Assembly (NCBI GenBank): GCA_963805085.1
Contig: CAWDTA010000002.1
Coordinates: 640,001 to 704,000 of the forward strand
Source: an uncultured Veillonellaceae bacterium
GTDB taxonomy: Bacteria; Bacillota; Negativicutes; JARBTT01
Reading direction: 5' to 3'
Length of the DNA stretch: 64,000 bases
How positions within the stretch are numbered: position 1 is the first letter of the stretch; every line of letters starts with the position of its first letter. Of this stretch, positions 112 through 29,565 are shown one piece after another. The position numbers were made by a program, and so were the translations under genes. Under the pieces are notes generated by a model. That model had not been told where the DNA came from. It was given only the letters and a program-made list of their open reading frames with translations, and ran no database searches.

Positions 112-585
112 GGGGTCAGGCTTGATTTATATGTAAAATTGACTTATCTTCTTTAATCTTTAATTGTTAGTTAACTCTTGATAAATTCTTGTAATATTGG
201 CTGGATCAATCTGTAGTACTTTTGCTAACTGCGTCCTTGTCATTAGATCTCTCTCAATCACTTCATAAATCAATCGTTTTCTAGCTGCTACTACCTGCCG
301 TATCCGGCACTTCCCTACCAACTTCTCTTGACTTATTTCTTCCTCTACAGTAATCTTCTCTACTAGCTGTTCCCATGTTAACTTCGTTCGGCTTTGTTCC
401 ATTTCTGCTTGTAATAGAGTTTTTTGAGTTTCTTTCCCTTGTTCGTTTTCAACGCTATATTCCAGCTTATCAACGGCGGCCCCTACTAAAATCAGATACT
501 GTGCCCTTGCCTGCTCAGTATTAGTACTTAATGTATTTAATATAAATTCTACATTTACTAATCCCGATGTTCTTTTAACATATGA
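112..585 (-). mobile_element. TIR-bounded RAYT/Y1 element copy 1, 5'-truncated
   Basis: TIR ggggtcaggcttgatttatatgtaaaattgactta at 112-146 followed by sequence near-identical to the 3' half of the intact copies; similarity stops at ~585. Confidence 0.9.
160..585 (-). pseudogene. C-terminal half of RAYT-like transposase
   Basis: SYVKRTSGLVNVEFIL...ELTNN matches intact copies; HUH motif and catalytic Tyr region missing. Confidence 0.9.
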
Positions 586-612
586 AAACGCGGGGACAGG
601 AAAACGCGGGGG
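584..612. repeat. Junction micro-duplication containing a GGGGACAG motif
   Basis: gaaaacgcgggg-acag-gaaaacgcgggg. Confidence 0.75.
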
Positions 613-1631
613 TAAGTAGCCCGAGGGAATTTCACCCTCAGGCTCTCTCAGAACCGGACTTGAACCTCTCAATTCATCCGGCTCCCATCATCTAACCGTT
701 GGAATAATTTCCATTCGCCAATGAACAAATAATTTCTGTTTGCTCTGTGCTATTTCCCTTAGCTTGTTTTGAGCGCGTCTTTTACTAGATTTTAACCTCT
801 TATACTTCTTTACCATCCATCTAATCAGCGTCCAATTTAGTTTGTGTAATATTACTTTCATTGCTGATTTGTAAAAACAGCCGTAATAGTTTATCCAACC
901 TCTAACTACAGGATTGACCATCTGGGCTATATCCACCAGTTCCTTCTCTGTCATCCGATGGATTTTCCATTGTCTTATGGTTTGCCCCATTGCTTTTACA
1001 GCTTTATTGCTTACTGCTGGTAGGAAGTTGAAAGTTCGTATGCTTCCATTACTACTTTCTTGGAAATTTCAAACGATTTTGTTTTGTTCATCGGCTCCTC
1101 CCTTTTGGTTGACCAGTGTTCAAAACTAGATAACACAGTCCCTTTGCTCCATTCCCATTACGGAATTTCATCACTATTACAGACTGTTCCGCCCCTATAC
1201 CCTGCATCTGTACTTTCGTCCTTGCGGGTTCTCCGCTTGAGACTTTTCCTTTATCATCAGGGTCGTAGGTTCCCACGTTCCTAACTAAAGCCTGTGCCAC
1301 GTTCACGCCGCCTCTATACCGGTCGCCATCTGGACAGTAATCAGGTTTCCTCCAGATTCATCCCGGACTACCTGTCAGAACCCGGTTTTGACGACATTTG
1401 CAAGTTTCGATACTTCTACAGCGGTTCAATTTTGTTCGTCTCCATTGGCACTTACCTAACGAAATCTTGTTTCACCTTTTTCCCGTAACGCTCACCACCA
1501 CGGCTTTTGACCGCAGCAGCTTACGGTGGTTTGAAGTCTCCACCTGTATGGCGACTTCGGAGGGCCTTCCTCCATCTCTAGTTAAGCGTAGAGTGTGGAC
1601 GCTAAAGCTTTCACACTCTTTCGTGGCACAC
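612..1631 (-). mobile_element. Group II intron with internally deleted RT/maturase ORF (class D-like)
   Basis: 5' end GTGTGCCACGAA at 1631; 34-nt domain V GAGCCGGATGAATTGAGAGGTTCAAGTCCGGTTC at 684-651; domain VI ending ...CTACTTAC at 612. Confidence 0.85.
688..1091 (-). pseudogene. Intron-encoded protein remnant (N-terminus fused out of frame to maturase domain X)
   Basis: RBS GAGGAG + MNKTKSFEISKKVVMEAYE, joined at ~1034 to FNFLPAVSNKA...NPVVRGWINYYG...LFVHW; RT domains absent. Confidence 0.85.
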
Positions 1632-1827
1632 ACGCGTCAACTTGTCTATTGATTGGGATTTCGAGGCTCAATCTCTTCAACTTATGCTTACGTCCTACTA
1701 TCTTGCTGTCTACGCTTAACCACATGAGTTACCCCATGCCGTCCAAGACTCGCTATGAAGGGTCTGCTAAACCTTGTTCATCGGGGTTCCCACCCGCTAT
1801 ATGATGTACCCCCTTACCTTGGCGCAC
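1632..1827 (-). mobile_element. 5' fragment (domain I) of a second group II intron
   Basis: Begins GTGCGCC at 1827; contains group II DI-like segments CATAGCGAGTCTTGG...GGTAAC...TAAGCGTAGACAG; interrupted by the inner intron at 1631/1632. Confidence 0.7.
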
Positions 1828-1878
1828 GGAACGCCCCCTCTATCCTCGAGGAAACAGTAGAACCGTCCCGTTGTATCC
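1828..1878. repeat. REP-like GGGACGGTTC/GGGGGCGTTC repeat pair
   Basis: Minus strand GGATACAACGGGACGGTTCTACTGTTTCC followed by GGATAGAGGGGGCGTTCC abutting the intron 5' end. Confidence 0.5.
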
Positions 1879-3254
1879 TACGATCCAATAAGCCCTGATT
1901 CCTGTTGCTCAATTTCCTCCAGTGTGCGTCCGCGAGTTTCTGGCACACGAGTCAATACAAACAAAACACCCAGCATACAAATGGCACCGAAGATGGCGAA
2001 CACTGCCGCCTGCGACATAGCACCCGTCATAATAGGGAACAGCAATCCGACCAGCCAGGAACCGATCCAATTGAAGGATGATGCCAATCCTGCCGCTCGA
2101 CCGCGAATAGCCAACGGAAATATTTCTCCCACCAGAACCCACGTAATTGGTGCCCATGTAGCTGAATAGAAGGCAACATAAATAGACAGAAAAAATACAA
2201 TCATCATCGGACTTGTACCCGGTATAAGCCAGTTAATGACCTCTGGCAGAACGAAGGATAACCCCATGATGAAGCCCCCAACCATTAAAAGCGTACGCCG
2301 GTTGAATTTTTCCGCAATCCAAATATATACCAACGACCCAAAAACAAGTATGATCCCTTGAATAATCGGCCACATTAATTCGTTGGTCGCGGCACTGCTG
2401 GTTGCCGTTTCCACAATGAGAGGAATGTAATAAAAGATAGCATTTGCTCCCTGGAATTGCTGGAAAGCGGCGACACCGACACCAGCAATAAGCAGATAAC
2501 GATATCTTTGGCTAAGTAGAGTCCCCCAGCTAATTTGATTCTCCGACTGATTTGCTTGTGCCGCGGTCTCTTTAATTTCTCTAAATTCGTTGTCAATTTC
2601 ATTTTCAGGGCGAACATAACTCAATACCCGCCGCGCCTCATCATAATGACCGTTTTTAATCAAATAGCGCGGAGATTCAGGCAAGCGCAGGACGCCAAAA
2701 AACAAGGCAACAGCGGGCAGGCAGGCAAAGCCCAGCATCAACCGCCAGGACATTTCGCCCGGCAAATCCTTCATTAAAAAATCGACAATATATGAAATCA
2801 ACATACCTGAAACGATCATGGTCTGATTAATTCCAGAAAGACGTCCGCGCATACGGGCCGGCGCCAACTCGGAAATATAGGCTGGTACTAAGGCTGAAGC
2901 TGCGCCAACACCCAGCCCCAAAAGCACACGGGCTATGATCAAATAAGTTTGTCCATTATTGGGAACTATCCCCGACACCAGTGCGAAAATCGCAAATATT
3001 ACGGCTGAAATCAAAATCATTTTACGCCGCCCTAATTTATCCGCAAGCTGACCGGCCAAAGCACCGCCAAAAATTGCCCCGAACATAACCGAAGATGTGA
3101 TCCAACCAATCTTTGAGGCATCAGTAAGATGCCAGTCGTGCGTCAAAAAGGGCAGCGCCCCAGTCATAACACCGATATCATAACCAAAAAGAATGCCACC
3201 AAATGCTCCGAAAAAATAAATATAATACCTTGATATTTTCTTTGTCTCTTCCAT
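1878..3254 (-). CDS. araE: Sugar porter family MFS transporter (arabinose-proton symporter-like)
   Basis: GGILFGYDIG, DKLGRR, PAYISELAP, PESPRYL, QQFQGANA, PETRGRTLEEI motifs; next to araA. Confidence 0.85.
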   Translation of the reverse strand: MEETKKISRYYIYFFGAFGGILFGYDIGVMTGALPFLTHDWHLTDASKIGWITSSVMFGAIFGGALAGQLADKLGRRKMILISAVIFAIFALVSGIVPNNGQTYLIIARVLLGLGVGAASALVPAYISELAPARMRGRLSGINQTMIVSGMLISYIVDFLMKDLPGEMSWRLMLGFACLPAVALFFGVLRLPESPRYLIKNGHYDEARRVLSYVRPENEIDNEFREIKETAAQANQSENQISWGTLLSQRYRYLLIAGVGVAAFQQFQGANAIFYYIPLIVETATSSAATNELMWPIIQGIILVFGSLVYIWIAEKFNRRTLLMVGGFIMGLSFVLPEVINWLIPGTSPMMIVFFLSIYVAFYSATWAPITWVLVGEIFPLAIRGRAAGLASSFNWIGSWLVGLLFPIMTGAMSQAAVFAIFGAICMLGVLFVLTRVPETRGRTLEEIEQQESGLIGS

Positions 3255-3436
3255 TTTTGCACCTCTCCATTATTATAAGAAGATACTGGAATTTATTCCG
3301 GGATTCTCCCAAAACCAATATTCTTAATGCGATTTCTAATCCGAAAACAGCTCTGTTTCAGGTTCTTTGTATCTATAATCGATGATATAATTCCCCTACG
3401 GACACGAAAATCGGTTGAATTTCATCTATGGTTATG

Positions 3437-3478
3437 TTTGCATTTCAGGCGTAATACAAATTTCGCCCGAAATGCAAA
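3437..3478 (-). terminator. Hairpin downstream of araA
   Basis: tttgcatttcaggcg...cgcccgaaatgcaaa inverted repeat. Confidence 0.5.
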
Positions 3479-3496
3479 CTTTATTTGTCGGCAGTC

Positions 3497-4921
3497 TTAA
3501 TCAATCACAATCGATTCAATACCGAACATCCCAGCCAGATCATTGATTTGTTCTTCTGTTAATACAAAAGAAAAAACAGAATGATGTCCGCCGCCATTTT
3601 GAATCCATCTAATCGCTCCTTCCTTAAGACCAACTTTCGGCGTCCATAATTGCTTAGCCACTGGCAAATGAGGCGTATCTTCTTCTGGTTTGTTGCCAGT
3701 TACCGGATAGCTAAGCAATTTAAAACCGTCAGAAAAATGCGAAAGGGTCACATCAATGGCATCTCCTTCAGAGCCTGTAAACACAAGGCGTGCCGGATCT
3801 CCCTTGCCACCGATATCGAGCGGATGAACTTCAACACGTGGTTTTTCACTAGCAATCGACGGATCCACTTCCAACATGTGAGCCCCTAAGATGGCTTCAT
3901 GCCCTTTTCGCAAATCAAGAGTATAATCTTCCATGAAAGCAGTCCGCTCATTATGCGCCATAATTTTCAGCAATCTGCTTAACCCGGCGGATTTGCCGTC
4001 GCCCTCAGCACCAAAACCATATCCATCACGCATCAACAATTGGCTTGCAAGACCGGGCAACTGTTCCAGACCGTGCAGATCTTCAAAATTTGTAGTAAAG
4101 GCCGTATATCCACCGCGTTCCAAAAATCTTTTAATACCGAGATATTCTTTCAGTTGAACCCGTACTGAATGTTCAAATTTATCGGTGCTGTTGTTACCTT
4201 GAACCAAAGTATACTGTGCCTGCAAAGCTTTGTATTCCTTATCTATGTCGCTACCGCTGACTTTAGTGATTTCTTCTACCAGATCGCCAACACCGTAATA
4301 GTCGATCGTCCAGCCAAGTGTTATCTGGGCTTCAACTTTATCAAGCTCAGTAACGGCAACATTGCGCATTGTATCACCGAAACGGCATATTTTGATTTTA
4401 AAGCTTTCGTTATAAGCCACAGCTACATCTTCCCAACAGGCAATTTCTTTCTGAACCTCTTCATCCCCCCAGTAGCCATAAACAATTTTATTGTTTTTGC
4501 GCAAACGGGCATTGATGTACCCATATTCACGATCACCATGCGCACTTTGATTCAGATTCATATAATCAAAGTCAATTGTACTATAGGGAATTTTATCTAA
4601 ATACTGAGTTGCCAAATGCAATAAAGGCTTCTGTAGCAGCTTCGTGCCTCGAATCCAATTCTTTGCCGGTGAAAAAGTATGCATCCATGTGATAACACCA
4701 GCAACATTGTCGTTATAATTTGCTTCTTTCATAAATTTAGTAATCCCGTCGGCAGTCGTCATAACATCTTTAAATACAATTTTGTAAGGCAACTTACCGC
4801 TCGTATTCAATTTTTTCACAACATCCTGTGCATCATCGGCAACCTGTTTTAATTGTTCCTCCCCATAAAGAAATTGACTTCCGGTGACAAACCAAAATTC
4901 ATACGCTGGAACTGATAACAT
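3497..4921 (-). CDS. araA: L-arabinose isomerase
   Basis: [52 protein letters not shown]. Confidence 0.97.
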
Positions 4922-5032
4922 TTTTCATTACTCCTTTGTCTAAAATATGGATATAATACGATATTAATTAAATTTAAAATTTTCAGTTTATTAAGACCTA
5001 AAACAATGTTTTGAATTTTTGCATAAAACTCC

Positions 5033-6643
5033 TCATTTTTCCTCATGAAGCTTATCAATCGCATTTTGTTCAACAGACAAACCTGCCTGATAAATCCTGA
5101 TGAATTTTTCATATCCGATGACGCCTATTGGCTCTGGATTCAACGTCATTGCTTCGGGATTTGCAAAAACTTTTTGGTCCAGAAAATCCTCAAGACTCTT
5201 AGTTTTGTCACCTTCTCTTACGTAGGATGCCAGTACCGCCATGCCCCAAGGCCCCCCCTGGCTTGCAGTTTTCATAACCGTAATGGGCGTGTCAAGCGCA
5301 TTGGCTAAAATTTGTTGGGCAATCACCGGTGTTTTGAAGAGTCCGCCCTGTGCAATAAGAACTTCGGTTTTTATCTGTTCTTCATTTTTCAAGATATCCA
5401 TACCGATTTTCAACGGAGCAAACGCGGAATAAAGCTGCGTTAAAATAAAGTTCGCCAAAGAAAATTCACAATTCGGCGTTCTGACAAATAGAGGCCGCCC
5501 GGCAGACATTTTGGTGATATTCTCACCTGACAAATAGCTGTAATTGACAAGTCCGCCTGCATCAGGCTTAGCCTTTGCAGTCACAAGGAACAATGCTTCA
5601 TACAATTTATCCGGCTTTAAATCAACGCCAAGCCGACTAGCAAACTGTCTGAAAATTTCCGCCCATGCATTGATATCTGACGAGCAGTTATTAATATGTA
5701 CCATCGCCACCGGAAAACCGTCCGGCGTCATTACGATGTCGATGTCGCGGTGCACTTTTGCTAACGGCTTATCCAGAACCACCATCGAAAAAGCAGAAGT
5801 TCCCACCGAGATATTACCCGTTCTTTTCCGAACGCTATTTGTCGCTACCATTCCGGTACCGGCATCGCCTTCCGGAGGCGCCATTATGCTGCCACTGACA
5901 AGATTCCCATTAACATCAAGCAATTTGGCTCCTTCTTCACTCAACATTCCGGCTGCTTGCCCCGCTTTAAGCACCTTAGGCAGAATACCATGAATATCCC
6001 ATGGATATTTCTTTACCTCCGCCAATTGACTAAAGCATTTTAAAAATTCTTCATTGTACGTACCTGTTTGTTCATCAATCGGAAAAGCTCCCGACGCATC
6101 CCCGATGCCAAGAATTTTCTGCCCAGAAAGTTTCCAATGTACATAACCTGCCAGAGTGGTGATGAATACTATTTTTCTGACATGCTCCTCTTCATTCAAA
6201 ACAGCCTGATATAAGTGCGCAATACACCAACGCTGTGGAATATTGAAACCAAATAGCTTTGTCAGCCTGTCTGTAGCCGGGCTAGTTGTATTGTTCCGCC
6301 AGGTTCTGAAAGGAGTTAGTAACTCATCTTCTTCTGAAAAAGCAAGATAGCCATGCATCATAGCACTGATACCAATCGAGCCGATATGAATCAAAGACTG
6401 ATGATACTTGCTCTTAACATCTGCCGTCAACTGTCTGTAACTTTCCCTGATTCCTTCCCATACCTGATCCAAAGGATAAGTCCATATGCCCTCCTTGTAC
6501 TGATTCTCCCAAACATAACAACCTGACGCTACAGTCTTAAAATCATCGGTGACCAGCACCGATTTGATTTGCGTCGATCCTAGCTCAATTCCAAGGGAAA
6601 TACGTCCTTCTTTTATTGCTTGAGAAATTTCTACTAAATTCAT
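5033..6643 (-). CDS. araB: FGGY-family L-ribulokinase (AraB/AraK type)
   Basis: LGIELGSTQIK, SAMMHGY, FNIPQRW, PEGDAGTGM; RBS GGAGG before ATG 6643. Confidence 0.85.
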   Translation of the reverse strand: MNLVEISQAIKEGRISLGIELGSTQIKSVLVTDDFKTVASGCYVWENQYKEGIWTYPLDQVWEGIRESYRQLTADVKSKYHQSLIHIGSIGISAMMHGYLAFSEEDELLTPFRTWRNNTTSPATDRLTKLFGFNIPQRWCIAHLYQAVLNEEEHVRKIVFITTLAGYVHWKLSGQKILGIGDASGAFPIDEQTGTYNEEFLKCFSQLAEVKKYPWDIHGILPKVLKAGQAAGMLSEEGAKLLDVNGNLVSGSIMAPPEGDAGTGMVATNSVRKRTGNISVGTSAFSMVVLDKPLAKVHRDIDIVMTPDGFPVAMVHINNCSSDINAWAEIFRQFASRLGVDLKPDKLYEALFLVTAKAKPDAGGLVNYSYLSGENITKMSAGRPLFVRTPNCEFSLANFILTQLYSAFAPLKIGMDILKNEEQIKTEVLIAQGGLFKTPVIAQQILANALDTPITVMKTASQGGPWGMAVLASYVREGDKTKSLEDFLDQKVFANPEAMTLNPEPIGVIGYEKFIRIYQAGLSVEQNAIDKLHEEK

Positions 6644-6954
6644 TAAAAACAGTACACCTCCCAAAATCCAAATAATATCACTTTGGCTTCATTCTTATAT
6701 ACAATACAAGCGTTGAATAAAGCATGACTTTCTATTATGTAGAAAGTTGTGATTTTTCAGACTAATTATAAATAACACCTACTCTGACCTAATGTCACGC
6801 CAAGAACCCGCTTCATCATATATGCAAGCATCCTGAAGCAATGCGGCGTATATTGCTTTTGGTCAAGTGAAAATTTACAGTCTGCCATAAAAAACTGATT
6901 CCATCGACTATACGTTTAATACCAAACTATCTTCTTTAAATTTATCCTCCTTTT

Positions 6955-7008
6955 AAACATCATACAACTTTATATATTCATCATACAACTTTTCTTTTTT
7001 ACTGTAAA
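6955..7008 (-). promoter_or_regulatory. Sigma70 promoter overlapped by tandem operator AAGTTGTATGATG
   Basis: TTTACA(7008-7003)-17-TATGAT(6985-6980); catcatacaactt at 6958-6970 and 6979-6991. Confidence 0.65.
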
Positions 7009-7190
7009 TATTTATTTAAAATATTATGAATAAAATTTTTATGAATGGACAATTCTTTAATTTTTTTGGCTGAAATTTGAACAAATCATTATTTCAAATT
7101 TTTTATTGATGTTCTTTCAACAAGGTTCGGTAGGAACCATTGGGGTCAGGCTTGAGTTATATGTAAAATTGACTTATTCTTCTTTACTCT

Positions 7191-8039
7191 TTAATTGCTG
7201 GTTAACTCTTGACAAATTCTTGTAATATTGGCTGGATCAATCTGCAGTACATTGGCTAACTGCGTCCTTGTCATTAGCTCCCTCTCAAGCGCTTCATAAA
7301 TCAATCTTTTTCTAGCTGCTACTACCTGCCGTATCCGGCACTTCCCTACCAACTTCTCTTGACTTATTTCTTCCTCTACAGTAATCTTCTCTACGAGCTG
7401 TTCCCATGTTAACTTCGTTCGGCTTTGTTCCATTTCTGCTTGTAATAGAGTTTTTTGAGTCTCTTTCCCTTGTTCATTTTCAACGCTACATTCCAGCTTA
7501 TCAACGACAGCTCCAACTAAAATCAGATACTGTGCCCTTGCCTTCTCAGTATTAGTACTCAATGTATTTAATATAAATTCTACATTTACTAATCCCGATG
7601 CTCTTCTAACATATAACAGATGACTGCTCCACCTATAGTCCACTCCCTCCAGCATGCTTGCCCGTACTGGATTTTGATGAATATAACATATAAGAGCCAT
7701 TAGATAACTTTCTTTCTCACAGATAAAGGCCTTGTAGCGTTGTTCAAATACATGTCCGCTATGTTTCTGATGCCAATTATAATGTTGCGTATACCTCTGT
7801 TGAATGCCTTGCATAATTTTTGCCAATGGATCTTTTCCTACTTGAAGTAGTAAGTGGACATGATTGTCCATAATCACATAAGCGTACAATTGAAAGTCAT
7901 ATCGCTTTTTATAGTCGGCTAAAATCTCTAGATATTTACCCTTTTTTTCCTCTGCTTCAAATACACGTTCCCTATTATTTCCTCTGGCTATTACGTGATA
8001 GATTGCACCTTCATAGTGTACCCTTGGTCTTCTTGCCAT
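7191..8039 (-). CDS. RAYT-like HUH/Y1 tyrosine transposase with C-terminal HTH
   Basis: MARRPR, YHVIARGNNR, MDNHVHLL (HUH), GHVFEQRY, YIHQNPVRA, YRWSS. Confidence 0.92.
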   Translation of the reverse strand: MARRPRVHYEGAIYHVIARGNNRERVFEAEEKKGKYLEILADYKKRYDFQLYAYVIMDNHVHLLLQVGKDPLAKIMQGIQQRYTQHYNWHQKHSGHVFEQRYKAFICEKESYLMALICYIHQNPVRASMLEGVDYRWSSHLLYVRRASGLVNVEFILNTLSTNTEKARAQYLILVGAVVDKLECSVENEQGKETQKTLLQAEMEQSRTKLTWEQLVEKITVEEEISQEKLVGKCRIRQVVAARKRLIYEALERELMTRTQLANVLQIDPANITRICQELTSN

Positions 8040-8070
8040 CCTTCTCACCCACCAATTTTTCTTGATTTCA

Positions 8071-8099
8071 AGCTTAGCAGGTCTTTTAATATAAGTCAA
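8071..8099 (-). promoter_or_regulatory. Transposase promoter with -35 inside the TIR
   Basis: TTGACT-17-TAAGCT with TG extension; conserved in copies 3 and 5. Confidence 0.55.
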
Positions 8100-8152
8100 T
8101 TTTTCATATAACTCAAGCCTGACCCCAATAGTTTTTATTTTATACTAGTATA

Positions 8153-9184
8153 TTATTTATTTACTACTCCTATATTTACTTGTGGCGTAAGACGAAAATA
8201 GTAATCATCCTGTATGGGATAATATTTAGGAGAACATTTATCCAGAATCGGAAAATCATATCCATTATGTAAATCCTTTAGAGAATCCAGATATACATCA
8301 GACAGTTGAAAATCGAGGTATACTTTATCACCATATTCAGGCTCTTTAAAGGTACCGCTTTCTCTGCGTTTTTTTAATTCAATCGTATCTCTTTTTTCTA
8401 CATTTCCGTGCTTTTCAATACAAAATGTTTCCCAATGTATTGAACCCATGCCTTCCGCGTTCATCCATTCATGAGCCATATCTGTTTGCGCTAATAAATT
8501 GCCTCCTGTACTCAAATTAAGATCAGGGAAATGTGCCATTTCAAACAGTTGGTTTTCTAATCGTTGATATCCAGGCAACATAATGCATCTATCATTACCA
8601 TAAAATAAAATAATTTTACCAGTAGGTTTTGTTACTCTCACAAATTCTTTGAAAATCAATCGTGGATCAGTAAAAATTCCGGGACATAGTGTATCACAGC
8701 ACCATATCCAATCAAAGGTGTTATCTGGAATCGTACATAATTTACCTTCTTCGTCAACATATTGCAAAGGCTTTTGATTAAAATCAGATGTTGCTACTTT
8801 AACACTCAGTTCAGGATAAGTACTATTTAAATATTTCGCTTTAACATTTCTTGCATATTCAACATGCTCTGGTGTGTAGTCAAGACAAAGAATTTCTCCA
8901 TTGTTCTTTATTCCTGAAGATAATAAAGGAAGAATTCCTCCTGGGCCACATCCTGCATCCAGACCATAGCTTCCTTTAGGCAAATTCGCCAATTCAATAG
9001 CTTTACTATATCCCTTCCACATCATACTGTTAAAAGAAAGCATTTGTTTTACATAGGGAGATAAAGTTACTTTCTCGTTATAAATTGTATTTTGAACAAC
9101 GTTTGCCGTCTTTGTAAAGCCTTGATTCTGCATAACCTTTTTATCAGAAAAATAATAATTTGTCCTTCTTATATTTGTTAACAT
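8153..9184 (-). CDS. Class I SAM-dependent methyltransferase
   Basis: LDAGCGPG motif I, IPDNTFDWIWC, EFVRVTKPTG. Confidence 0.85.
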   Translation of the reverse strand: MLTNIRRTNYYFSDKKVMQNQGFTKTANVVQNTIYNEKVTLSPYVKQMLSFNSMMWKGYSKAIELANLPKGSYGLDAGCGPGGILPLLSSGIKNNGEILCLDYTPEHVEYARNVKAKYLNSTYPELSVKVATSDFNQKPLQYVDEEGKLCTIPDNTFDWIWCCDTLCPGIFTDPRLIFKEFVRVTKPTGKIILFYGNDRCIMLPGYQRLENQLFEMAHFPDLNLSTGGNLLAQTDMAHEWMNAEGMGSIHWETFCIEKHGNVEKRDTIELKKRRESGTFKEPEYGDKVYLDFQLSDVYLDSLKDLHNGYDFPILDKCSPKYYPIQDDYYFRLTPQVNIGVVNK

Positions 9185-9568
9185 TTTTCCACCTCATATA
9201 CTCTAGAGTACAAGCTCTATTTTTTTAGAAACCCATTTCCTAACCAGAAAAACCTTACTTATGTTCGAAATCACAAATTTTTAGGGCATGTTTACCGAGA
9301 GACTACTTCTATACAATAGGCTTTGTATTACTTCAATGTATCACACACCTCCAATGCCATTTTTTTATTTTACCTCCCCTTTCTTTATCCGTACAAAATC
9401 TCTAATTTTTAGCTAATTGTCCATATCATTTTGGGATTACTAGCAAGCGATATCGCTTAACATCAGCCGAAAGCTCTCCCGAATAACCGAGTGTTTTCAT
9501 ATTTTTCATTTCTGATTTCTAAAAAATAAGCTTTAAAGCCAGTTTTTGCACTACAAAAGTTAATTTGA

Positions 9569-10684: not shown

Positions 10685-10749
10685 TTTATCGCTCTCCTTT
10701 GATAACACTACAAACTCCCACTCATGCTTTAGTTCTGAAAAAATTCCAA

Positions 10750-11818
<1,069 letters not shown>

Positions 11819-11856
11819 ATCATTTATCCTCCATTCACTCTCTATCTCAATTGAAC

Positions 11857-13473: not shown

Positions 13474-14287
13474 ATATAGCCCCTCCTTTCTTCTTAGCTA
13501 TACAAAAGGCACTGGCATGATATGTCGAATATTGTTCATTGTTATTGTCCAATTTAAGCTTTTCTATAAAATAACTACAGACAGCATCCTGCTGTTTTTT
13601 ATCTAGAGGATGAAGCCACATACTTCCTGATGCTTTTAACCAAGAAAAGTATTCTTCAAAATTGGAAAAATATACTTTTCTTAATACCAGTCCATAATCA
13701 CTTACTACTAAATCTTTTTCAACAAACGACCTCATTAATTCCACAGGTGTAATCCTTCTTTTACTAAATGAATCAAACTTCTTATAATAATCCACAAGAC
13801 CTAGCTGGTTTATAGACAACAGAAATTCTCTTTCTTCTTCATCTAGTACTGCTTCGATTTCATTATCAATTCCTGCAGTATATATTGCCAAAATCCCATC
13901 ATTCCTCAAAGAAGATACCAATTTTTCTAAAACACGCTCTTTATTAAACCAATGAAATGCAGCATTACTTATTATGACATCATAAAGATCTATATCTAAC
14001 TCCTCAATATTGCCTTGAATAAATTTTATATTATGAATATTTAACAAATCAGCTTGTTTCTTCCCAACATCAAGCATGTCAGAAGATAAATCTATACCAG
14101 CGAAATTACAGTTAGGATGTTGTTGTGTCAAATGTAGTAAAATATTCCCCGTTCCACAACCAACATCAAGAACATGATCTCCCTCCTTTAACTGAATATT
14201 CCTGACTAGTTCTAAACCGTTTAAGAATTGTGCTTTTGTGTTTAAATCTTTATAGATATCCCCGTCAACCCAATAGTTTTTACTCAT
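13442..14287 (-). CDS. Class I SAM-dependent methyltransferase
   Basis: VLDVGCGTG, GIDLSSDML, SNAAFHW. Confidence 0.9.
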   Translation of the reverse strand: MSKNYWVDGDIYKDLNTKAQFLNGLELVRNIQLKEGDHVLDVGCGTGNILLHLTQQHPNCNFAGIDLSSDMLDVGKKQADLLNIHNIKFIQGNIEELDIDLYDVIISNAAFHWFNKERVLEKLVSSLRNDGILAIYTAGIDNEIEAVLDEEEREFLLSINQLGLVDYYKKFDSFSKRRITPVELMRSFVEKDLVVSDYGLVLRKVYFSNFEEYFSWLKASGSMWLHPLDKKQQDAVCSYFIEKLKLDNNNEQYSTYHASAFCIAKKKGGAICELKSGRVSV

Positions 14288-14345
14288 GATTTTCCCCACA
14301 ATCGCTATTGCATTACTCTTACTTATTTTAAACCTATAAGTTTCC

Positions 14346-14948
14346 CTACACCATCTTAAGTAAGTGATGACATCGCTCTTTCTTAGTTTTTAAATACTGT
14401 CTATTATGAAGATTAGGTGAAATTTCGATTTGCTCTACTTTGATTTCAAAGCCACTATCGACTAACGCTTTTATTTTATCTGGATTATTCGTCATTAATC
14501 GTAATGATCGCATTCCTAATTCTTTTAATATGTATACAGCAAAACTATAGTCTCTTGAATCATTGGCAAATCCAAGTTTTATATTTGCTTCAACAGTATC
14601 TAAGTTAAATTTTTGTTGAAGATAATAAGCATTTGCTTTATTAAATAACCCGATTCCTCTCCCTTCTTGTCTAAGATAAATTAAGACACCTAATTTTTCA
14701 TCAGCAATTCTTTTCATTGCTTCTCTTAATTGGTTCATACAATCACATCTCAAGGAAGTAAATACCTCACCAGTAATACATTCAGAGTGAATTCTTACTA
14801 ATGCACCTTTTTTTAATGTTTTTATATTACCCATTGATAATACAATCGGATTACTCCCATCAAACAATTCAAATACTTGGGTCTTAAACTCCCCAAACTC
14901 CGTAGGCAGTGTAAATTTTTCTGAAGACCTCATAACCAATTTTTCCAT
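14346..14948 (-). CDS. ribA: GTP cyclohydrolase II (monofunctional)
   Basis: RIHSECITG...RCDC, RQEGRGIGL, DTVEAN, LMTNNPDK, YLKTK. Confidence 0.95.
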   Translation of the reverse strand: MEKLVMRSSEKFTLPTEFGEFKTQVFELFDGSNPIVLSMGNIKTLKKGALVRIHSECITGEVFTSLRCDCMNQLREAMKRIADEKLGVLIYLRQEGRGIGLFNKANAYYLQQKFNLDTVEANIKLGFANDSRDYSFAVYILKELGMRSLRLMTNNPDKIKALVDSGFEIKVEQIEISPNLHNRQYLKTKKERCHHLLKMV

Positions 14949-15000
14949 TTTTATTAATCTCCTCAACATAGGTTTTCATCTCTAAAAAATTCATCCTTAG

Positions 15001-15813
15001 TCATATATTTAATATTTGTCTTGCTTCTATTGGTGTCGCAATCTCCCTCCCCATCTCCACAGAGTATTTCGTAATACGTTCTACTAATTGTGCATTACTT
15101 GATGCTAATTCATGATATTTATAATAAACATTATCCTCAAAACCCGTTCTTACATGTCCCCCCGCTAAGATACCAGCCAAATTCATAGGCAATTGACTAC
15201 TCCCTACCGCAGCAACAAACCAGTTGCTGTCTTTAGGAATACTTTCAATTAAAAACAATAGATTTTTTACACTAGCTGGTATACCACCATTAACCCCCAG
15301 AACAAATTGAAAATTTAAAGGTCCTTTCACTATGCCTTTTCGTGCAAATTCAACAACATGTCCTATCATTCCAAAATCGAATATCTCAAATTCGGGTCTA
15401 ATTTGGTGCTTGCCAATTTCTTCAGCCAATTTTAAAATAAAGCTTGGTGTGTTAATGAATACCTTACCATTTCTATTAAAAGACCCTGGTGTAAAAGATG
15501 CTATTTCTGGCATACATGTTAATGGTTTTAAACGGCTTGAATCATCTCCGTCCACATTAAAACCTGTGGTTGTTAGACAGATTAATATATCAGTTTTTTC
15601 TCTAATTCGTTCTAATATTTCTCGATATACCTCTACACGCTGACTTGGTGTTCCATCGCACTCTCTTGCATGAATATGGACAATAGATGCTCCTGCATTC
15701 CGGCAGTCATACACAGATTGAGCTATTTCTTTGGGTGTTATCGGTAAATTAGGATTATTCTTCTTTGTTGTAATGCCTCCATTAATTGCGGCGGTAACAA
15801 TCAACTTATTCAA
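15001..15813 (-). CDS. Beta-keto acid cleavage enzyme (BKACE/Kce, DUF849)
   Basis: PITPKEIA, AGASIVHIHAR, PEFEIFD, GGHVRTGFEDN, SNAQLVER; start codon uncertain (15813 or 15822). Confidence 0.92.
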   Translation of the reverse strand: MNKLIVTAAINGGITTKKNNPNLPITPKEIAQSVYDCRNAGASIVHIHARECDGTPSQRVEVYREILERIREKTDILICLTTTGFNVDGDDSSRLKPLTCMPEIASFTPGSFNRNGKVFINTPSFILKLAEEIGKHQIRPEFEIFDFGMIGHVVEFARKGIVKGPLNFQFVLGVNGGIPASVKNLLFLIESIPKDSNWFVAAVGSSQLPMNLAGILAGGHVRTGFEDNVYYKYHELASSNAQLVERITKYSVEMGREIATPIEARQILNI

Positions 15814-15953
15814 CCTTATCACCTTCTATACTTTTTTTATTTTTCTTACACTAATGTAGAAAATTGCCCATTAATAATTCAATATGAACATCGCCTTAAT
15901 ATTAATTTACCATATTTACTAATTAATGCAAATAATTATATAACTTGACCCTC

Positions 15954-16930
15954 GGGGTCAGGCTTGAGTTATATGTAAAATTGACTTATTCTTCTTTAAT
16001 TGTTAGTTAACTCTTGACAAATTCTTGTAATATTGGCTGGATCAATCTGTAGTACTTTGGCTAACTGCGTCCTTGTCATTAAATCTCTCTCAAGCACTTC
16101 ATAAATCAATCGCTTTCTAGCTGCTACTACCTTCCGTATCCGGCACTTCCCTACCAATTTCTCTTGACTTATTTCTTCCTCTACACTAATCTTCTCTACG
16201 AGCTGTTCCCATGTTAACTTCGTTCGGCTTTGTTCCATTTTTGCTTGTAATAGAGTTTTTTGAGTCTCTTTCCCTTGTTCGTTTTCAACGCTATATTCCA
16301 GCTTATCAACGGCAGCCCCTACTAAAATCAGATACTGTGCCCTTGCCTGCTCAGTATTCGTACTCAATGTATTTAATATAAATTCTACATTTACTAATCC
16401 CGGTGCTCTTCTAACATATGACAGATGGCTGCTCCACCTATAGTCCACCCCTTCCAGCATGCTTGCCCGTACTGGATTTTGATGAATATAACATATAAGA
16501 GCCATTAGATAACTCTCTTTCTCACAGATAAAGGCCTTGTAGCGTTGTTCAAATACATGTCCGCTATGTTTCTGATGCCAATTATAATGTTGCGTGTACC
16601 TCTGTTGAATGCCTTGCATAATTTTTGCCAATGGATCTTTTCCTACTTGAAGTAGTAAGTGGACATGATTGTCCATAATCACATAAACGTACAATTGAAA
16701 GTCATATCGCTTTTTATAGTCGGCTAAGATCTCTAGATATTTACCTTTTTCTTCCTCTATTTCAAATACATGTTCCCTATTATTTCCTCTGGCTATTACG
16801 TGATAGATTGCACCTTCATAGTGTACCCTTGGTCTTCTTGCCATCCTTCTCACCCACCAATCTTTCTTGATTTCAAGCTTAGCAGGTCTTTACTATAAGT
16901 CAATTTTTCATATAACTCAAGCCTGACCCC
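15954..16930 (-). mobile_element. TIR-bounded RAYT/Y1 element copy 3 (intact)
   Basis: Same TIR pair as copy 2. Confidence 0.92.
15996..16844 (-). CDS. RAYT-like HUH/Y1 tyrosine transposase
   Basis: Near-identical to 7191-8039. Confidence 0.92.
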   Translation of the reverse strand: MARRPRVHYEGAIYHVIARGNNREHVFEIEEEKGKYLEILADYKKRYDFQLYVYVIMDNHVHLLLQVGKDPLAKIMQGIQQRYTQHYNWHQKHSGHVFEQRYKAFICEKESYLMALICYIHQNPVRASMLEGVDYRWSSHLSYVRRAPGLVNVEFILNTLSTNTEQARAQYLILVGAAVDKLEYSVENEQGKETQKTLLQAKMEQSRTKLTWEQLVEKISVEEEISQEKLVGKCRIRKVVAARKRLIYEVLERDLMTRTQLAKVLQIDPANITRICQELTNN

Positions 16931-16931
16931 A

Positions 16932-17207
16932 AAACACCCCACTCTTAATAATATAGCTGATTTTTTTGGGGTATCAATTGATTACCTCCTCGGTAGAGAA
17001 AACCTATCTACAACCAGTGTTGCCCCCGCCTCGCAAATAACAGAATTATCACAAGAAGACCTTGCTCTTCTTGAAGTAGCCCGCCAATTAAAAAACCTCC
17101 CGGACACTGACCGGAAGGAGATCGAATCGTATATTCAATATAAAAAACACAGCAACAAAAATAACGTTCAAGCCGATGCAAAAAAAAATAAGAAATCTAC
17201 CGTGTAA
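16932..17207 (+). pseudogene. N-terminally truncated XRE/phage repressor-like HTH protein
   Basis: Hand translation: ..TLNNIADFFGVSIDYLLGRE...DRKEIESYIQY..STV*; no start codon, begins at the TIR. Confidence 0.75.
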
Positions 17208-17279
17208 TGTCTTCATGAAAATGATTTAATAACGAATACATACTTTCCAAAATTAATAGCAGAAAAGCCACTACACGTC

Positions 17280-17313
17280 AAAAAATCCTTCCAGCAAAAC
17301 GCTAGAAGGATTA
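17280..17313. terminator. Hairpin terminator
   Basis: aatccttccagc-aaaac-gctagaaggatt with flanking A-run. Confidence 0.5.
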
Positions 17314-17331
17314 AAATTATTAGATTAGAAC

Positions 17332-17354
17332 TTTGAACCCTCGACCCACGGCTT
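17332..17354 (-). other. tRNA 3'-half fragment, possible att-site scar
   Basis: Minus strand AAGCCGTGGGTCGAGGGTTCAAA resembles the anticodon stem 3' side, variable loop and T-arm of a tRNA-Arg. Confidence 0.4.
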
Positions 17355-17526
17355 GGGAATGAATTATGTAAATTTTATATTATAATTTTATTTTTACATA
17401 ATCTATAAAATCAATAATTCAAGGGTTTACTTTTTTATAAATTCCACTAATTATTTTATTTCTAGTGTTTATTGTCCACCTTTTAACCACCTATCATAAT
17501 GATTAACAAAAGATGTAATATTATCC

Positions 17527-19372
17527 TTAATCACCAAAATCAATTTTTTCTTCTGCAGCATTGAAAATATCAATTCTATTTTCAACATCAATTTTATTAA
17601 CAAGCCATCCTCTGAGTAAACAATTTTTTATAAAATCATCAATTCGATTGACACCATCTATCTCTTTTAACGTTACTACAATACCAAACTTTATCCCTAC
17701 TCCATATTTTTCATCTAAACGTTCTTTTGTTTTTAAACTTACTCCCCAAATTTCTTTATCATAGCGCTTTTTCGCACGATTAACTTTTTTTGACACTTCC
17801 CTAATGTGCTTCACATTATCCCATTTTCTAAAATACTTTCTTGCATCTTCCTCCCACGTAAAATATTCAACTTCCGCACTTTGATAATTATTATCTATGG
17901 GCTTTATTCCCTTATCAGTTAACCTACCAAGTTGTATTTCAAGTTCCGTATTTGTATAATCAACCCCTTGGCTTCGAGAACAACAGGGGAAATAACATAA
18001 AGTTGCTTTTACAATAAAGGGATGTTTTTCCTTACTTATGGGCACAGGAATATTATAATTGTATGTATCATATTTTTCCGAAACACCCGATAAAACAAAT
18101 TGTATCTCATCATCTGGACAACGAACGATATCATCAATTTTCATTGGAACTATTCCGTGCCCAATAAGAGAAGAGTCAACTACTTGCTTATCCCAACCAG
18201 TTGCCGCATTTATTATTAGAGCTTTTGCCACTTCTCTGCTTAATCCTAGAATATTAATTAAATAAGACATTTTCCTTGCTATCCAGGGGGCTGCAAAAGA
18301 GGTTCCTCCTACAAACGCTTCACCAGTTGAAGTGCATACTCGCATAAGATTTGCTCCATCACCACCGTAATAACTGATATCAGGTTTTGTAAAAAATGAT
18401 AACACCGGACCTTTCCGAGTATAAGAGGCAGGGCGGTTATCAAAATTAACAGAATTAACAACCAGCGAATTTATAGAGTCAGCAGGTGCCCCTATAGCCT
18501 TAACTTGTTTTTCAGTAGAAACTTTATTAGTTCCGGCAATAATAAATGTTACATCACTTTCATACTGTATTCTATCCAATATTGCTGCTTCAGGCGAAAT
18601 GAAGTTTGGATTTATTTCAAGCTTAGATCCGAGAGATAAATTCCAAACTTTAATATCTTTGTTTGACGATATTATTTCATTAATATTTCTTAAAATTGTA
18701 AATGAACTAAACTGATTTCCGGCAGCAACACCAAAATGTCGTACGCGAAACCTACCACAACCATCATCCATATGAGGATTAGATGAAGGACCGTCTACTA
18801 TAATAGAGGATACCGCGGTTCCATGATTATAGTCGTTTGTTGATAACGAAATATCTTCGGGCAACATATTTTTAAATTCAACCCACTCAGAAAAGTATAC
18901 CTTTTCATCAAACATAGTATCAATTACACCGATTATAGGTTCATTCTTAGGGGAAGGAATAGCTATTACAGTATGATCACAAAAATCAAAATCAACTTTT
19001 GTTAGTTTTGTTATGTCACTAACTGCCATAGATATTAAATATGGAGCTTTTTGTTTTAAAAGAGCTAATTCATCAGGTCTTAATAAAATTGTCGTATCAT
19101 CCATTACTCTAGTAAACTGCAAACTGATACCTAACTTTTCCATGAGCTTTGTTGCCTTAACATCTGTTTTATATATAGTAATAATAGCTTCATCTTTTAA
19201 ATCTATATCATCAACTAATACATCAAATTTTTCAACATAAAAAGCATCTACTATTACCTTAAGAAAATTAGTTTTTGCAATCTTTGATGGGGTAAAGGCA
19301 ATTTGTTTTGAATTAATTTTCTCGATTATGTCATGGGTGATTGCCCCATTGAATTTTTTATTTAAGACTCTT
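17527..19372 (-). pseudogene. S8 subtilisin-like protease (Y4bN/IetS type), N-terminally truncated
   Basis: GVIDT, HGTAVSS, WNLSLG, GTSFAAP triad motifs; the predicted start lies in the GGGGTCA junction duplication. Confidence 0.8.
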
Positions 19373-19388
19373 GGGGTCAAAGACTCTT

Positions 19389-19527
19389 AGGGTCAGGCTT
19401 GAGTTATATATAAAATTGACTTATTTTTCTTTAATTGTTGGTTAACTCTTGACAAACTCTTGTAATATTGGCTGGATCAATCTGTAGTACTTTGGCCAAC
19501 TGCGTCCTTGTCATTAGCTCTCTCTCA
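19389..19527 (-). mobile_element. TIR plus 3' tip of RAYT (copy 4, fragment)
   Basis: agggtcaggcttgagttata... followed by sequence coding ERELMTRTQLAKVLQIDPANITRVCQELTNN. Confidence 0.85.
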
Positions 19528-19743
19528 TGAACGCCTCTCCAGTTCCTTAATTATCTTGTCAAAATCCGACTCAAACTGTTGGTCCTGTATAACCCTATAT
19601 TTATTGTATTCACCTTCCGCCAGAGCTGCAGCTACCTGATGCGATATCTTTCCTGCATACTGCAAAACCTCATACTCGTTGAATTGAAGAAAGGCATCCA
19701 GATTATAATATTCGAGCTTACGCGACACTTCCCGTTTCCCTTC

Positions 19744-20490
19744 AATCAAAACCACCCGTCCAACGGGTGGTTTGAACTGAGGCTGTAAGCCTCTATTACT
19801 AGCCAGCGTCTAAAGGCGCTGGCTTTCACTTTGTTCAAGCCACTGTGGTTTTGTCATTTTTACTATCCCTCAAGGGATATTTGTACTATTTTACTTTTTA
19901 CCCTTAAAAGGGTCTTCATATTCTCTAACACTTAATTTATCTAGTGCCTGATCATGTTTTTCTTGCTCTTGTATATATTTTTTTATAGTGGCTTCATTCA
20001 ATCCTACTGTACTTACATAATATCCTTCTGCCCAAAAATGTCTGTTCCCATATTTATACTTTAGGTTACTATGCTTTTCGAATATCATCAGTGCACTTTT
20101 TCCTTTTAAGTATCCCATAAATGCAGATACACTAATTTTCGGTGGTATTGACACTAACATATGCACATGGTCTACCATCAAATGCCCCTCTAATATTTCT
20201 ACCCCCTTGTAACTACATAATCTCCTTAATATTTCCCCTATACTTTCTCTGTATTGCCCATATATTATTTTTCTTCTATACTTCGGCGTAAATACTATAT
20301 GATACTTGCACATCCATTTGGTATGTGCTAAACTTTGAGCCATAAACTCACCGATCCTTTCTTGTAATAGTGGCCTGAACACCCTCTATTATAAGAATCC
20401 GGTGAGTTTTTGTATAACTTCTGTCGCGCACCTGCATAGCAGGTGGTTTTTTGTTTCGTTCGCTTCGCTACCTCAACAGACTAAAGTCTA
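19744..20490 (-). mobile_element. IS200-family insertion sequence
   Basis: tnpA only; subterminal hairpins (19750-19773, 19801-19824, 20345-20408); interrupts the RhuM reading frame; ends approximate. Confidence 0.85.
19891..20343 (-). CDS. tnpA: IS200/IS605 family transposase
   Basis: CKYHIVFTPKYRR, DHVHML, LKGKS, FWAEGYYVSTVG, YIQEQ. Confidence 0.95.
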   Translation of the reverse strand: MAQSLAHTKWMCKYHIVFTPKYRRKIIYGQYRESIGEILRRLCSYKGVEILEGHLMVDHVHMLVSIPPKISVSAFMGYLKGKSALMIFEKHSNLKYKYGNRHFWAEGYYVSTVGLNEATIKKYIQEQEKHDQALDKLSVREYEDPFKGKK

Positions 20491-20658
20491 AATTTGAACT
20501 GTCAAAATTTCTTTGACAGTTGCTTCTCGATCCAATTCATTCTCTTTATAAATGTTCTGTAAATGATAGCTGATACTTTGTTTGCTCGTACCAAACAGTT
20601 CTGCCATGCGATTCATAGCCCATGGTAGCCTATGGGGTCATAGCCTATGGTAGCCCTC

Positions 20659-21643
20659 GGGGTCAGGCTTGAGTTATATGTAAAGTTGACTTATTCTTCT
20701 TTACTCTTTAATTGCTGGTTAACTCTTGACAAATTCTTGTAATATTGGCTGGATCAATCTGCAGTACATTGGCTAACTGCGTCCTTGTCATTAGCTCCCT
20801 CTCAAGCGCTTCATAAATCAATCGTTTTCTAGCTGCTACTACCTTCCGTATCCGGCACTTCCCTACCAACTTCTCTTGACTTATTTCTTCCTCTACAGTA
20901 ATCTTCTCTACGAGCTGTTCCCATGTTAACTTCGTTCGGCTTTGTTCCATTTCTGCTTGTAATAGAGTATTTTGAGTCTCTTTCCCTTGTTCGTTTTCAA
21001 CGCTATATTCAAGCTTATCAATGGCAGCCCCTACTAAAATCAGATACTGTACCCTTGCCTCCTCAGGATTAGTACTCAATGTATTTAATATAAATTCTAC
21101 ATTTACTAATCCCGGCGTTCTTCTAACATACGACAGATGACTGCTCCACCTATAGTCCACTCCCTCCAGCATGCTTGCCCGTACTGGATTTTGATGAATA
21201 TAACATATAAGAGCCATTAGATAACTCTCTTTCTCACAGATAAAGGCCTTGTAGCGTTGTTCAAATACATGTCCGCTATGTTTCTGATGCCAATTATAAT
21301 GTTGCGTGTACCTCTGTTGAATGCCTTGCATAATTTTTGCCAATGGATCTTTTCCTACTTGAAGTAGTAAGTGGACATGATTGTCCATAATCACATAAGC
21401 GTACAATTGAAAGTCATATCGCTTTTTATAGTCGGCTAAGATCTCTAGATATTTGCCTTTTTCTTCCTCTGTTTCAAATACACATTCCCTATTATTTCCT
21501 CTGGCTATTACGTGATAGATTGCACCTTCATAGTGTACCCTTGGTCTTCTTGCCATCCTTCTCACCTACCAATCTTACTTGATTTCAAGCTTAGCAGGTC
21601 TTTTACCATAAGTCAATTTTTCATATAACTCAAGCCTGACCCC
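20659..21643 (-). mobile_element. TIR-bounded RAYT/Y1 element copy 5 (intact, next to core genes)
   Basis: Same TIR pair as copy 2. Confidence 0.92.
20708..21556 (-). CDS. RAYT-like HUH/Y1 tyrosine transposase
   Basis: Near-identical to the other copies. Confidence 0.92.
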   Translation of the reverse strand: MARRPRVHYEGAIYHVIARGNNRECVFETEEEKGKYLEILADYKKRYDFQLYAYVIMDNHVHLLLQVGKDPLAKIMQGIQQRYTQHYNWHQKHSGHVFEQRYKAFICEKESYLMALICYIHQNPVRASMLEGVDYRWSSHLSYVRRTPGLVNVEFILNTLSTNPEEARVQYLILVGAAIDKLEYSVENEQGKETQNTLLQAEMEQSRTKLTWEQLVEKITVEEEISQEKLVGKCRIRKVVAARKRLIYEALERELMTRTQLANVLQIDPANITRICQELTSN

Positions 21644-21651
21644 AATAGTTT

Positions 21652-23308: not shown

Positions 23309-23478
23309 CGCTCTCACCTCCCTAACATTATTTTACCATACAAGTAAAGGAATGGCGCCCTGACAAATTTTTGTCGCCGCCCATTCCCTTATTGTAATGT
23401 AGATACATTGGTAGTTTAATATCATAAAAACGATTGTATAAGATTCCGGCTTCAATACCACTGATGATACGACTTTGT

Positions 23479-26629: not shown

Positions 26630-29565
<2,936 letters not shown>

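Follow-up and report, generated by a model that had tools for sequence, protein, structure and literature searches.

How did several copies of one small transposase-bearing unit come to alternate with unrelated genes at a single locus, and do the units themselves take part in moving these genes? The question is raised by a stretch of the genome of an uncultured Veillonellaceae bacterium, a 4.21-Mb assembly in five contigs (G000) that is 83% complete. The window, meaning the whole stretch of 64,000 nucleotides that was analysed, covers positions 640001-704000 of contig C2. An earlier note on this DNA, made from the sequence alone, had proposed that the units form a gene-capture platform. We find copies of a mobile element of the TIRtron type, i.e. 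a transposase gene between terminal inverted repeats (TIRs), and strain-to-strain differences that begin at the element ends. At a probability of about 55%, we prefer to read the locus as an old insertion-sequence cluster, reshaped by proximity-biased insertion and by host recombination and deletion.

Copies were located by repeat finding and alignment, and genome-wide by blastn (17 high-scoring segment pairs) and by a scan with 14-mers of the ends. The earlier note had listed five co-oriented, TIR-bounded units of about 980 bp. These five were confirmed, with alignment coordinates of 112-583 (c1, element positions 1-473), 7142-8126 (c2), 15954-16930 (c3), 19389-19527 (c4, 1-146) and 20659-21643 (c5), and a sixth, truncated copy, c0 (1-611), was added just left of the window at C2:638970-639580. 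All six are co-oriented on one strand, the minus strand of the window. The true ends lie about 8 nt beyond the aligned ends, as indicated by strain comparison and by contig joints at 21651/21652. The full element thus measures 1,001 bp, and each full copy carries one open reading frame (ORF) for a 282-aa Y1/HUH transposase. Full copies are c2 (7134-8134; ORF 7191-8039, 282 aa counted from M21 of the listed ORF), c3 (15946-16940; ORF 15996-16844), whose right boundary comes from the metagenome contig L032 and the sequencing run X7 introduced below, and c5 (20651-21651; ORF 20708-21556), which abuts the stop codon of crr. Besides c0, the truncated copies are c1 (104-583, i.e. element positions 1-473 plus the 8-nt outer tip), which has kept its left end, lost the 5' part of the transposase gene and has an orthologue in L032, and the remnant c4 (19366-19527). 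A candidate seventh relic of a left end at 17334-17396 was rejected as too weak, with a score of 31 that was equalled by 5 of 896 control windows.

The inverted ends are 36 bp long (about 35 bp in the earlier note), or 44 bp counting the outer 8 nt, with 92-97% complementarity. They open with GGGGTCAGG and can also be written GGGGTCAGGCTTGAGTTAT...AAATTGACTTAT. The tip GGGGTCAG is found at eight of the nine array ends, and c4 reads AGGGTCAG instead. No direct repeats were seen flanking c2, c3 and c5, i.e. no target duplications, and the ends of c2, folded as single strands, form hairpins no better than those of shuffled sequences (z 0.2-0.5). An inverted piece of an end stands in the left flank of c3 and creates a palindrome with a 14-bp stem (z -3.75). 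Furthermore, a tandem reiteration of the outermost 8-16 nt at left ends, often including GGGGTC, occurs in c4, c5, two L032 copies, and in the genomes G082, G222 and G018. It looks like a stutter of end processing. In c4 the reiterated tip is 16 nt long and occupies 19366-19388, while tip-like decamer repeats precede c5 at about 20613-20650; beyond the window, reiterated left tips were located on L032, L028, L031, L013 and L030. All five independently truncated copies of this lineage (c0, c1, c4 and two in L032) have kept the left end.

The truncation points of c0 and c1 adjoin a palindromic element of about 62 nt with GGGGACAG arms, another tip of the GGGGWSAS type. Such palindromes occur at C2:639581-639642, at window 584-600, at C2:249519 and at C2:1455698-1455728, and at c1 a group II intron sits inside the palindrome. 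A 16-mer of it has six matches genome-wide, one of them beside a copy of a different Y1 family.

Across the whole assembly, blastn and the end scan place all gene-bearing copies within C2:638,962-661,651, i.e. 22.7 kb, in agreement with the earlier claim that the units are confined to one locus beside crr. For six copies to share a 23-kb stretch of a 4.2-Mb genome at random, the probability would be about (23/4200)^5, so that the clustering goes far beyond chance. The sole copy outside the array is a gene-less miniature of about 100 bp with both inverted ends at C1:354819-354914. A loose contig end in run X7 reads into the interior of this same miniature, which indicates that relatives carry it too. 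The 14-nt tip scan, allowing at most two mismatches, returned the nine array ends, the two ends on C1, and six matches without the rest of an end.

The transposase points to the family of the element. PF01797 (Y1_Tnp) is detected in the ORFs of c2, c3 and c5 with E values of 4e-16 to 1.5e-14, and each of them has retained an intact HUH motif (HVHLL) and an intact tyrosine motif (YIHQNP). Codon differences among the three copies are 18/16, 10/14 and 13/15 (synonymous/nonsynonymous). The NCBIfam model NF047646 for REP-associated tyrosine transposases (RAYTs; REP, repetitive extragenic palindrome) gives 73 bits, under its cut-off of 80. An AlphaFold2 model built from 52 sequences (mean pLDDT 83) predicts a catalytic domain, a disordered linker at 183-207 and a helical bundle at 212-281. 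The best PDB match of this predicted fold is 4ER8, the RAYT of Escherichia coli (TM 0.74 on the target), and the TnpA proteins of ISDra2 and IS608 rank behind it. The C-terminal tail has a weak match to PF08299 (Bac_DnaA_C), with an E value of 0.025 that is below the cut-off, and many homologues at 40-50% identity carry PF08299 together with PF01797 (913 relatives at E ≤ 1e-20). Sporomusa, Pelosinus and Lucifera have closer relatives, 70-78% identical, whose ends show the same tip and the same two 9-mers, TTGAGTTAT and TTGACTTAT. Three transposases that are 94-95% identical, P0004, P0002 and P0006, are encoded on contigs of 47.9 kb, 15.9 kb and 9.3 kb, respectively. Among 72,556 plasmid records a single one holds a relative (a Sporomusa termitida plasmid, 44% identity), giving no sign of a plasmid vehicle.

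In Di Nocera 2013 (PMC3733652), RAYT-like genes between inverted repeats are named TIRtrons and their enzymes TIRYTs, and many TIRtron ends fit the motif GGGGWSAS. The tip GGGGTCAG fits this motif as defined there, and the TIR-flanked relatives with such ends that the earlier note had mentioned are hereby borne out. According to Quentin 2018 (PMC6006769), 20 of 26 TIRYTs belong to TnpA-Y1 subclass 2.1, with DnaA-like or helix-turn-helix (HTH) tails, and the subclasses other than IS200 are without typical insertion-sequence features. In Bertels 2017 (PMC5581495), RAYTs are mostly single-copy, and Group 1 is the most insertion-sequence-like, with 6.3% duplicates and with some copies on plasmids. 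Members of IS200/IS605 have subterminal hairpins, no inverted ends, and a TnpA of about 130-160 aa, whereas here the ends are inverted and the protein has 282 aa. Classical RAYT genes of REPtrons are single-copy and accompanied by dispersed REPs; in G000 the gene is present six times, and only a single pair of ends without a gene lies elsewhere. What we do find is a Y1/HUH domain, a gene bracketed by inverted repeats and not by REP hairpins, and a GGGGWSAS tip. Judged by these sequence features, the element is a TIRtron and its enzyme a TIRYT, probably of TnpA-Y1 subclass 2.1, and thus of a known, barely studied kind.

Comparison of strains shows the locus in motion. L032, a metagenome contig with the homologous locus, is 96-99% identical to the window in shared DNA, and contigs of four public runs (X1, X2, X3 and X7) were compared as well. 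The blocks between units differ among these close strains and the differences begin at the tips of c1, c2, c3 and c5. Variable cargo between conserved units at the crr/nagA locus, as the earlier note had expected, is thus present in L032 and in the run contigs. L032 begins with two partial copies, one (1-143) nested directly in the other (1-537), and continues with about 400 nt, an XRE-type regulator gene and then c1, a group II intron and arabinose genes, a block that is 98.9% identical to that of G000. After the arabinose genes come 160 nt of a gene absent from G000, one full element, and crr-nagA. The 8-gene operon, c3, the S8 peptidase gene, c4 and the RhuM-family gene of the window are all missing from L032. 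Its XRE gene has an intact N-terminal half, as has that of run X7, and is cut at the position corresponding to window 17129 by the left end of c1. In run X3, 176 extra letters stand between the RhuM gene and the left end of an element, and in X1 and X2 position 17316 is joined to 21652, with 30 letters on the short side. An IS200 that splits the RhuM gene in the window is missing in all four runs (joint 19743>20491), and its insertion is therefore recent. Judged by the miniature copy, the nested copy in L032 and the strain-to-strain difference, the element behaves as a mobile one.

An assembly artefact was ruled out as the source of the array, as the copies differ by 3-10% and the junctions are common to independent contigs. 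Several short-sided joints were not relied on (8178>17398, 13576>17373, 16063>21651, 17270>21406, 21650>17272, 20613>7140 and 21593>7140). The last of these, from run X7, is a possible head-to-tail junction, but one side has only 37 letters. The stretches of the operon without cover in X1, X2, X3 and X7 prove nothing. In the same-genus assembly G001 (280 contigs, 84% complete), a DNA search from the crr-nagA side and from the left flank found no syntenic locus. A 36-nt direct repeat, 94% identical, occurs at C2:632795-632830 and, 24.4 kb away, at window 17235-17270. In run X3, the sequence beyond the second repeat copy, read from a loose contig end, is that found in the genome beyond the first, which hints at a rearrangement.

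The copies themselves carry a record of their history. In pairwise comparison c0 and c3 are 99% alike though 17 kb apart, and the other copies are 90-97% alike. A divergence of 3-10%, with neighbours that are not the closest pairs, argues against a recent local burst. Simple local hopping was likewise ruled out, since neighbours are not the most similar copies either in this family or in a second Y1 family. Between c1 and its L032 orthologue there are about 20 substitutions in the 480 nt of the element (about 4%) and none in the next 600 nt, and c2 and c5 have only the left 150 nt or so in common and differ elsewhere. Both patterns point to gene conversion among the copies. Co-orientation was rejected as evidence for enzyme action because the leading-strand bias is genome-wide: with the origin placed near C2:810 kb by cumulative GC skew, codirectionality with replication holds for 83% of 1,700 long ORFs and, among the Y1 loci, for 17 of 18 (p = 0.17).

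The grouping of copies is not restricted to this genome. We searched 401 genomes of the class, 26 of which have a match at E ≤ 1e-40 and eight at least two matches on one contig. A same-strand pair at most 10 kb apart was found in six of these eight evaluable genomes (G000, G018, G082, G162, G182 and G218), where about 0.4% per pair would be expected by chance. For example, G018 has three 99% identical copies and a solo right end in 11.4 kb, with IS3-like, IS1182-like and EndoU/CdiI genes between the copies. In its congener G038 the whole array is absent at that locus, and pieces of it surround a single copy at another place. Reshuffling of this kind is also seen in Pelosinus-like genomes. In each case the repeated part is the unit of about 1 kb only, and the flanks are not repeated. 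Within G000, three further RAYT-like Y1 families (250-257 aa) each include one close pair of same-strand copies, which are separated by 2.6-8 kb of unique DNA. One of the three is dispersed over six sites (C2:248493, 548493, 553714, 712911, 801623 and C3:14513); the other two lie at C2:1948648, 1951296 and 2044201, and at C2:537953, 545934 and C4:178534.

The region as a whole is a variable island of about 29 kb that interrupts an amino-sugar locus (mupG-murP ... crr-nagA). Domain content, determined with Pfam, confirmed that the blocks between the units are unrelated, as described earlier, and added the IS200 that had then been missed. To the right of c1, on the minus strand, a half GGGGACAG-type palindrome and an internally deleted group II intron occupy 584-1650 (domain V/VI 611-686, maturase GIIM ORF 688-990, D1-D4 1454-1573). 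The arabinose block follows at 1878-6664, minus strand, with a sugar transporter of the major facilitator superfamily (1878-3254), an L-arabinose isomerase (3497-4921) and an FGGY kinase (5033-6664). Between c2 and c3, at 8153-15822 on the minus strand, the 8-gene operon is intact and encodes two S-adenosylmethionine methyltransferases, a glycosyltransferase (GT2), two lumazine-synthase-like proteins, a gamma-glutamyltranspeptidase, a GTP cyclohydrolase II and a BKACE protein. Its product may be pterin- or flavin-like. GC content is 43% in the arabinose block, 33% in the operon and 33% in the S8 gene, against 37% for the genome, and a lumazine-synthase-like protein of the operon was found in none of 400 other genomes of the class. 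The composition of the cargo is foreign.

The three genes further right are cut at element ends, as the earlier note had reported. Of the XRE-type regulator only the 3' part is present (16941-17207, plus strand); the homology starts at 16941, the part beginning ...TLNNIADFFGVSIDYLLG, directly beyond c3. The S8 peptidase gene (17527-19368, minus strand) is cut at about 19368, where its start lies against the reiterated tip of c4, and it is without the first 126 codons of its 737-742-aa relatives (126 of 739 aa). The N-terminally cut RhuM-family gene (19528-20637, minus strand) ends at about 20637, some 13 nt from the left boundary of c5 at 20651. It is split by the IS200 at 19744-20490, whose tnpA (19891-20382) encodes 163 aa and matches NF033573. 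That the missing halves are not on the other side of an element holds for the two that were searched. The best match to the missing S8 part in the assembly has an E value of 4.6, i.e. the part is absent, and the missing XRE part has no DNA match in the assembly, only paralogues at no more than 46% identity. The stretch from c3 to c5 consists of three broken genes and not of captured cassettes, and only the arabinose block and the operon look functional. The S8 family is very uniform in length (737-742 aa) and 70-91% identical across records from Lachnospiraceae, Sedimentibacter, Alkaliphilus and Erysipelotrichales, which suggests a widely transferred gene.

On the right, the island is flanked by the conserved minus-strand genes crr (phosphotransferase system EIIA-Glc, 21652-22122) and nagA (22163-23317). 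To the left of the window lie mupG, a MurNAc-type phosphotransferase system gene and an SLH porin, and then, as the left part of the island (C2:633349-638822; L001 13349-18822), a DUF2971 gene, an IS256 transposase, a RES-domain gene and an sce7725/sce7726 pair, followed by c0. Elsewhere in the window there are two complete rRNA operons (5S-23S-16S, minus strand) at 26406-31549 and 34824-40024, which account for its 100% identical repeats spaced by 8.4 kb, and a T-box leader at 42470-42715.

How could such a locus have formed? In the explanation that we prefer, the units are copies of one TIRYT insertion sequence, encoding a RAYT-like Y1/HUH transposase with a putative C-terminal helix-turn-helix tail. 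New copies would tend to land near or inside resident copies, and the resulting same-direction repeats would become substrates for host homologous recombination. Its outcomes would be deletion between two copies, gene conversion, and the integration of foreign DNA carrying a copy, and deletions starting at element ends would add to the turnover. Recombination between nearby same-direction copies deletes the DNA between them, so that one part of a gene can be left abutting an element end while the rest of it is lost. Over time, this turnover would produce genes cut exactly at element ends and blocks that differ from strain to strain.

Several observations weigh against this explanation. Neither a donor nor an intermediate was seen for the homologous recombination that we infer. 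All breakpoints seen between strains lie at element tips, where crossovers within elements and an end-specific action of the transposase would look alike. The left tips, being reiterated at many loci, show processing of the ends themselves, and the left end kept in five of five truncated copies is not predicted by simple recombination. To our knowledge, proximity-biased insertion is not documented for the TIRYT family, and an assembly of 83% completeness may lack some dispersed copies. The tip reiteration, the palindrome at c3, the kept left ends, and the intact foreign operon that lies exactly between a right and a left end speak for a possible active role of the ends.

The most direct form of such a role is an accretion driven by the transposase, comparable to the translocatable units of IS26. 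An element would be excised together with adjacent DNA, and the Y1 enzyme would insert it beside a resident copy by way of the inverted ends, thereby building a same-direction array at a single locus. This is a sharpened form of the idea in the earlier note, which had the enzyme join foreign DNA and re-duplicate locally. Nothing we found shows either activity, and neighbouring copies are not each other's closest relatives. Accretion agrees with the presence of all copies at one locus, with adjacent copies that differ by 3-7% as if separately imported, and with an intact foreign operon bordered exactly by a right end on one side and by a left end on the other. The strain differences at tips, the reiterated left tips, the nesting of one copy in another, the right-end fragment that abuts the left end of c3, and the close pairs in six of eight genomes point in the same direction. 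However, no circle or junction was seen among the contigs compared, apart from the candidate joint 21593>7140 in run X7, with its short side of 37 letters. Moreover, the known 'peel and paste' transposition of Y1 enzymes moves the element alone, the gene conversion shows host recombination to be active at the locus, and half of the supposed cargo consists of broken genes. We regard such accretion as possible, yet doubtful. A related idea, which we put forward just as tentatively, is that TIRYTs home to their own kind. The putative HTH tail would bind both of the conserved 9-mers that each end contains, and insertion of element-bearing DNA beside or into a resident copy would be the task of the Y1 domain. 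From a founder, a same-direction array would thereby grow, in which foreign blocks are trapped, swapped and eroded. Integrons rely on an IntI tyrosine recombinase, an attI site and cassettes bounded by attC. The integron-like array of the earlier note finds no support, since no recombinase family was detected among 20 ORFs of the window (Pfam) and 12 ORFs upstream (eight scanned with NCBIfam and five with Pfam, one of them with both), attC sites not being part of the search. Of the gene-capture platform, the variable cargo between units is real, while capture by the Y1 enzyme is not shown by any of these observations.

Read-through from one end, as in the rolling-circle elements IS91/ISCR and Helitrons, would start at one end, miss the other and carry the flank along. 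The enzyme is of the HUH class, the left end is kept in all of c0, c1, c4 and the two truncated copies of L032, and in X1 and X2 the joint 17316-21652 delimits a block (17317-21651) that ends at the right tip of c5 and has no intact end at its other border. But a RAYT-like protein of 282 aa with a single tyrosine is not of the IS91/ISCR type, and the ends are symmetrical inverted repeats without distinct ori and ter. Moreover, c0 and c1 are truncated at a palindromic element or intron and not at a capture junction, a right end stands alone in G018, and the candidate relic of an end at 17334-17396 carries little weight, as its score is reached by 5 of 896 control windows. We regard read-through as very unlikely. 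Only slightly less improbable is a passive accumulation, in which the island merely tolerates insertions and the element arrived repeatedly, or hopped locally, with no part in the turnover of cargo. The island does hold an IS256, an IS200, group II intron remnants, the sce7725/7726 pair and a RES-domain gene, and the array of G018 contains IS3- and IS1182-like genes. Even if 5% of the genome were permissive, however, six copies in 23 kb would have a probability of about 1e-5. The strain breakpoints coincide with element tips at c1, c2, c3 and c5, and the Y1 family found at six sites indicates that dispersal is possible in G000. An old insertion-sequence cluster reshaped by proximity-biased insertion and by host recombination and deletion remains the explanation that we favour.

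Set beside known systems, the locus resembles the TIRtrons and TIRYTs of PMC3733652 and of subclass 2.1 in PMC6006769 in its parts: a RAYT-like Y1/HUH gene between inverted repeats, the GGGGWSAS tip and the lack of REP hairpins, to which a C-terminal HTH tail may be added. According to the accessible parts of these sources, published TIRYTs are mostly single genes, whereas here the element is multi-copy and polymorphic among strains, has given rise to a miniature, and alternates with cargo in a same-direction array. RAYT/REPIN systems and Group 1 RAYTs appear to share the enzyme clade, with 4ER8 as best match of the structural model, but they have dispersed REP/REPIN populations where here we find one miniature and a multi-copy gene.

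In its arrangement, the locus resembles arrays of the IS26 type, which also have direct copies alternating with unrelated blocks, no visible target duplications, confinement to one locus, and gain or loss at the boundaries. IS26 uses a DDE transposase of the IS6 family, for which a conservative, copy-targeted reaction is demonstrated. In contrast, PF01797 is the only transposase domain in the units here, their enzyme is Y1/HUH, and none of our observations shows a reaction of this kind. IS91/ISCR elements and Helitrons are HUH rolling-circle elements known for gene capture, in which adjacent DNA is mobilised from one constant end. They share the HUH chemistry and truncated copies that keep one end, but have larger proteins and asymmetric ends without inverted repeats, and no read-through derivative was identified at our locus.

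The accessible parts of the TIRYT literature hold no mention of same-direction arrays with cargo, although the supplements of PMC3733652 and PMC6006769 may list multi-copy or clustered ones. Multi-copy, mobile TIRYTs in same-direction arrays, with genes gained and lost at the element ends, are not described in those parts. TIRYT genes are widespread (the 913 relatives mentioned above), and in the same sources they are described only by sequence analysis. At this locus a TIRYT behaves as a true insertion sequence, with ends defined by strain comparison, a miniature, nesting and strain polymorphism. If the grouping reflects self-targeted insertion, single-strand transposases would have a hitherto unrecognised means of building variable islands. 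Elements that home to their own kind would, among single-strand transposases, be the counterpart of the IS26 translocatable units and would build small variable islands quite generally. Should the grouping turn out not to be self-targeted, the locus, with its three intact copies, would still be a clean natural system for the first biochemistry of the family.

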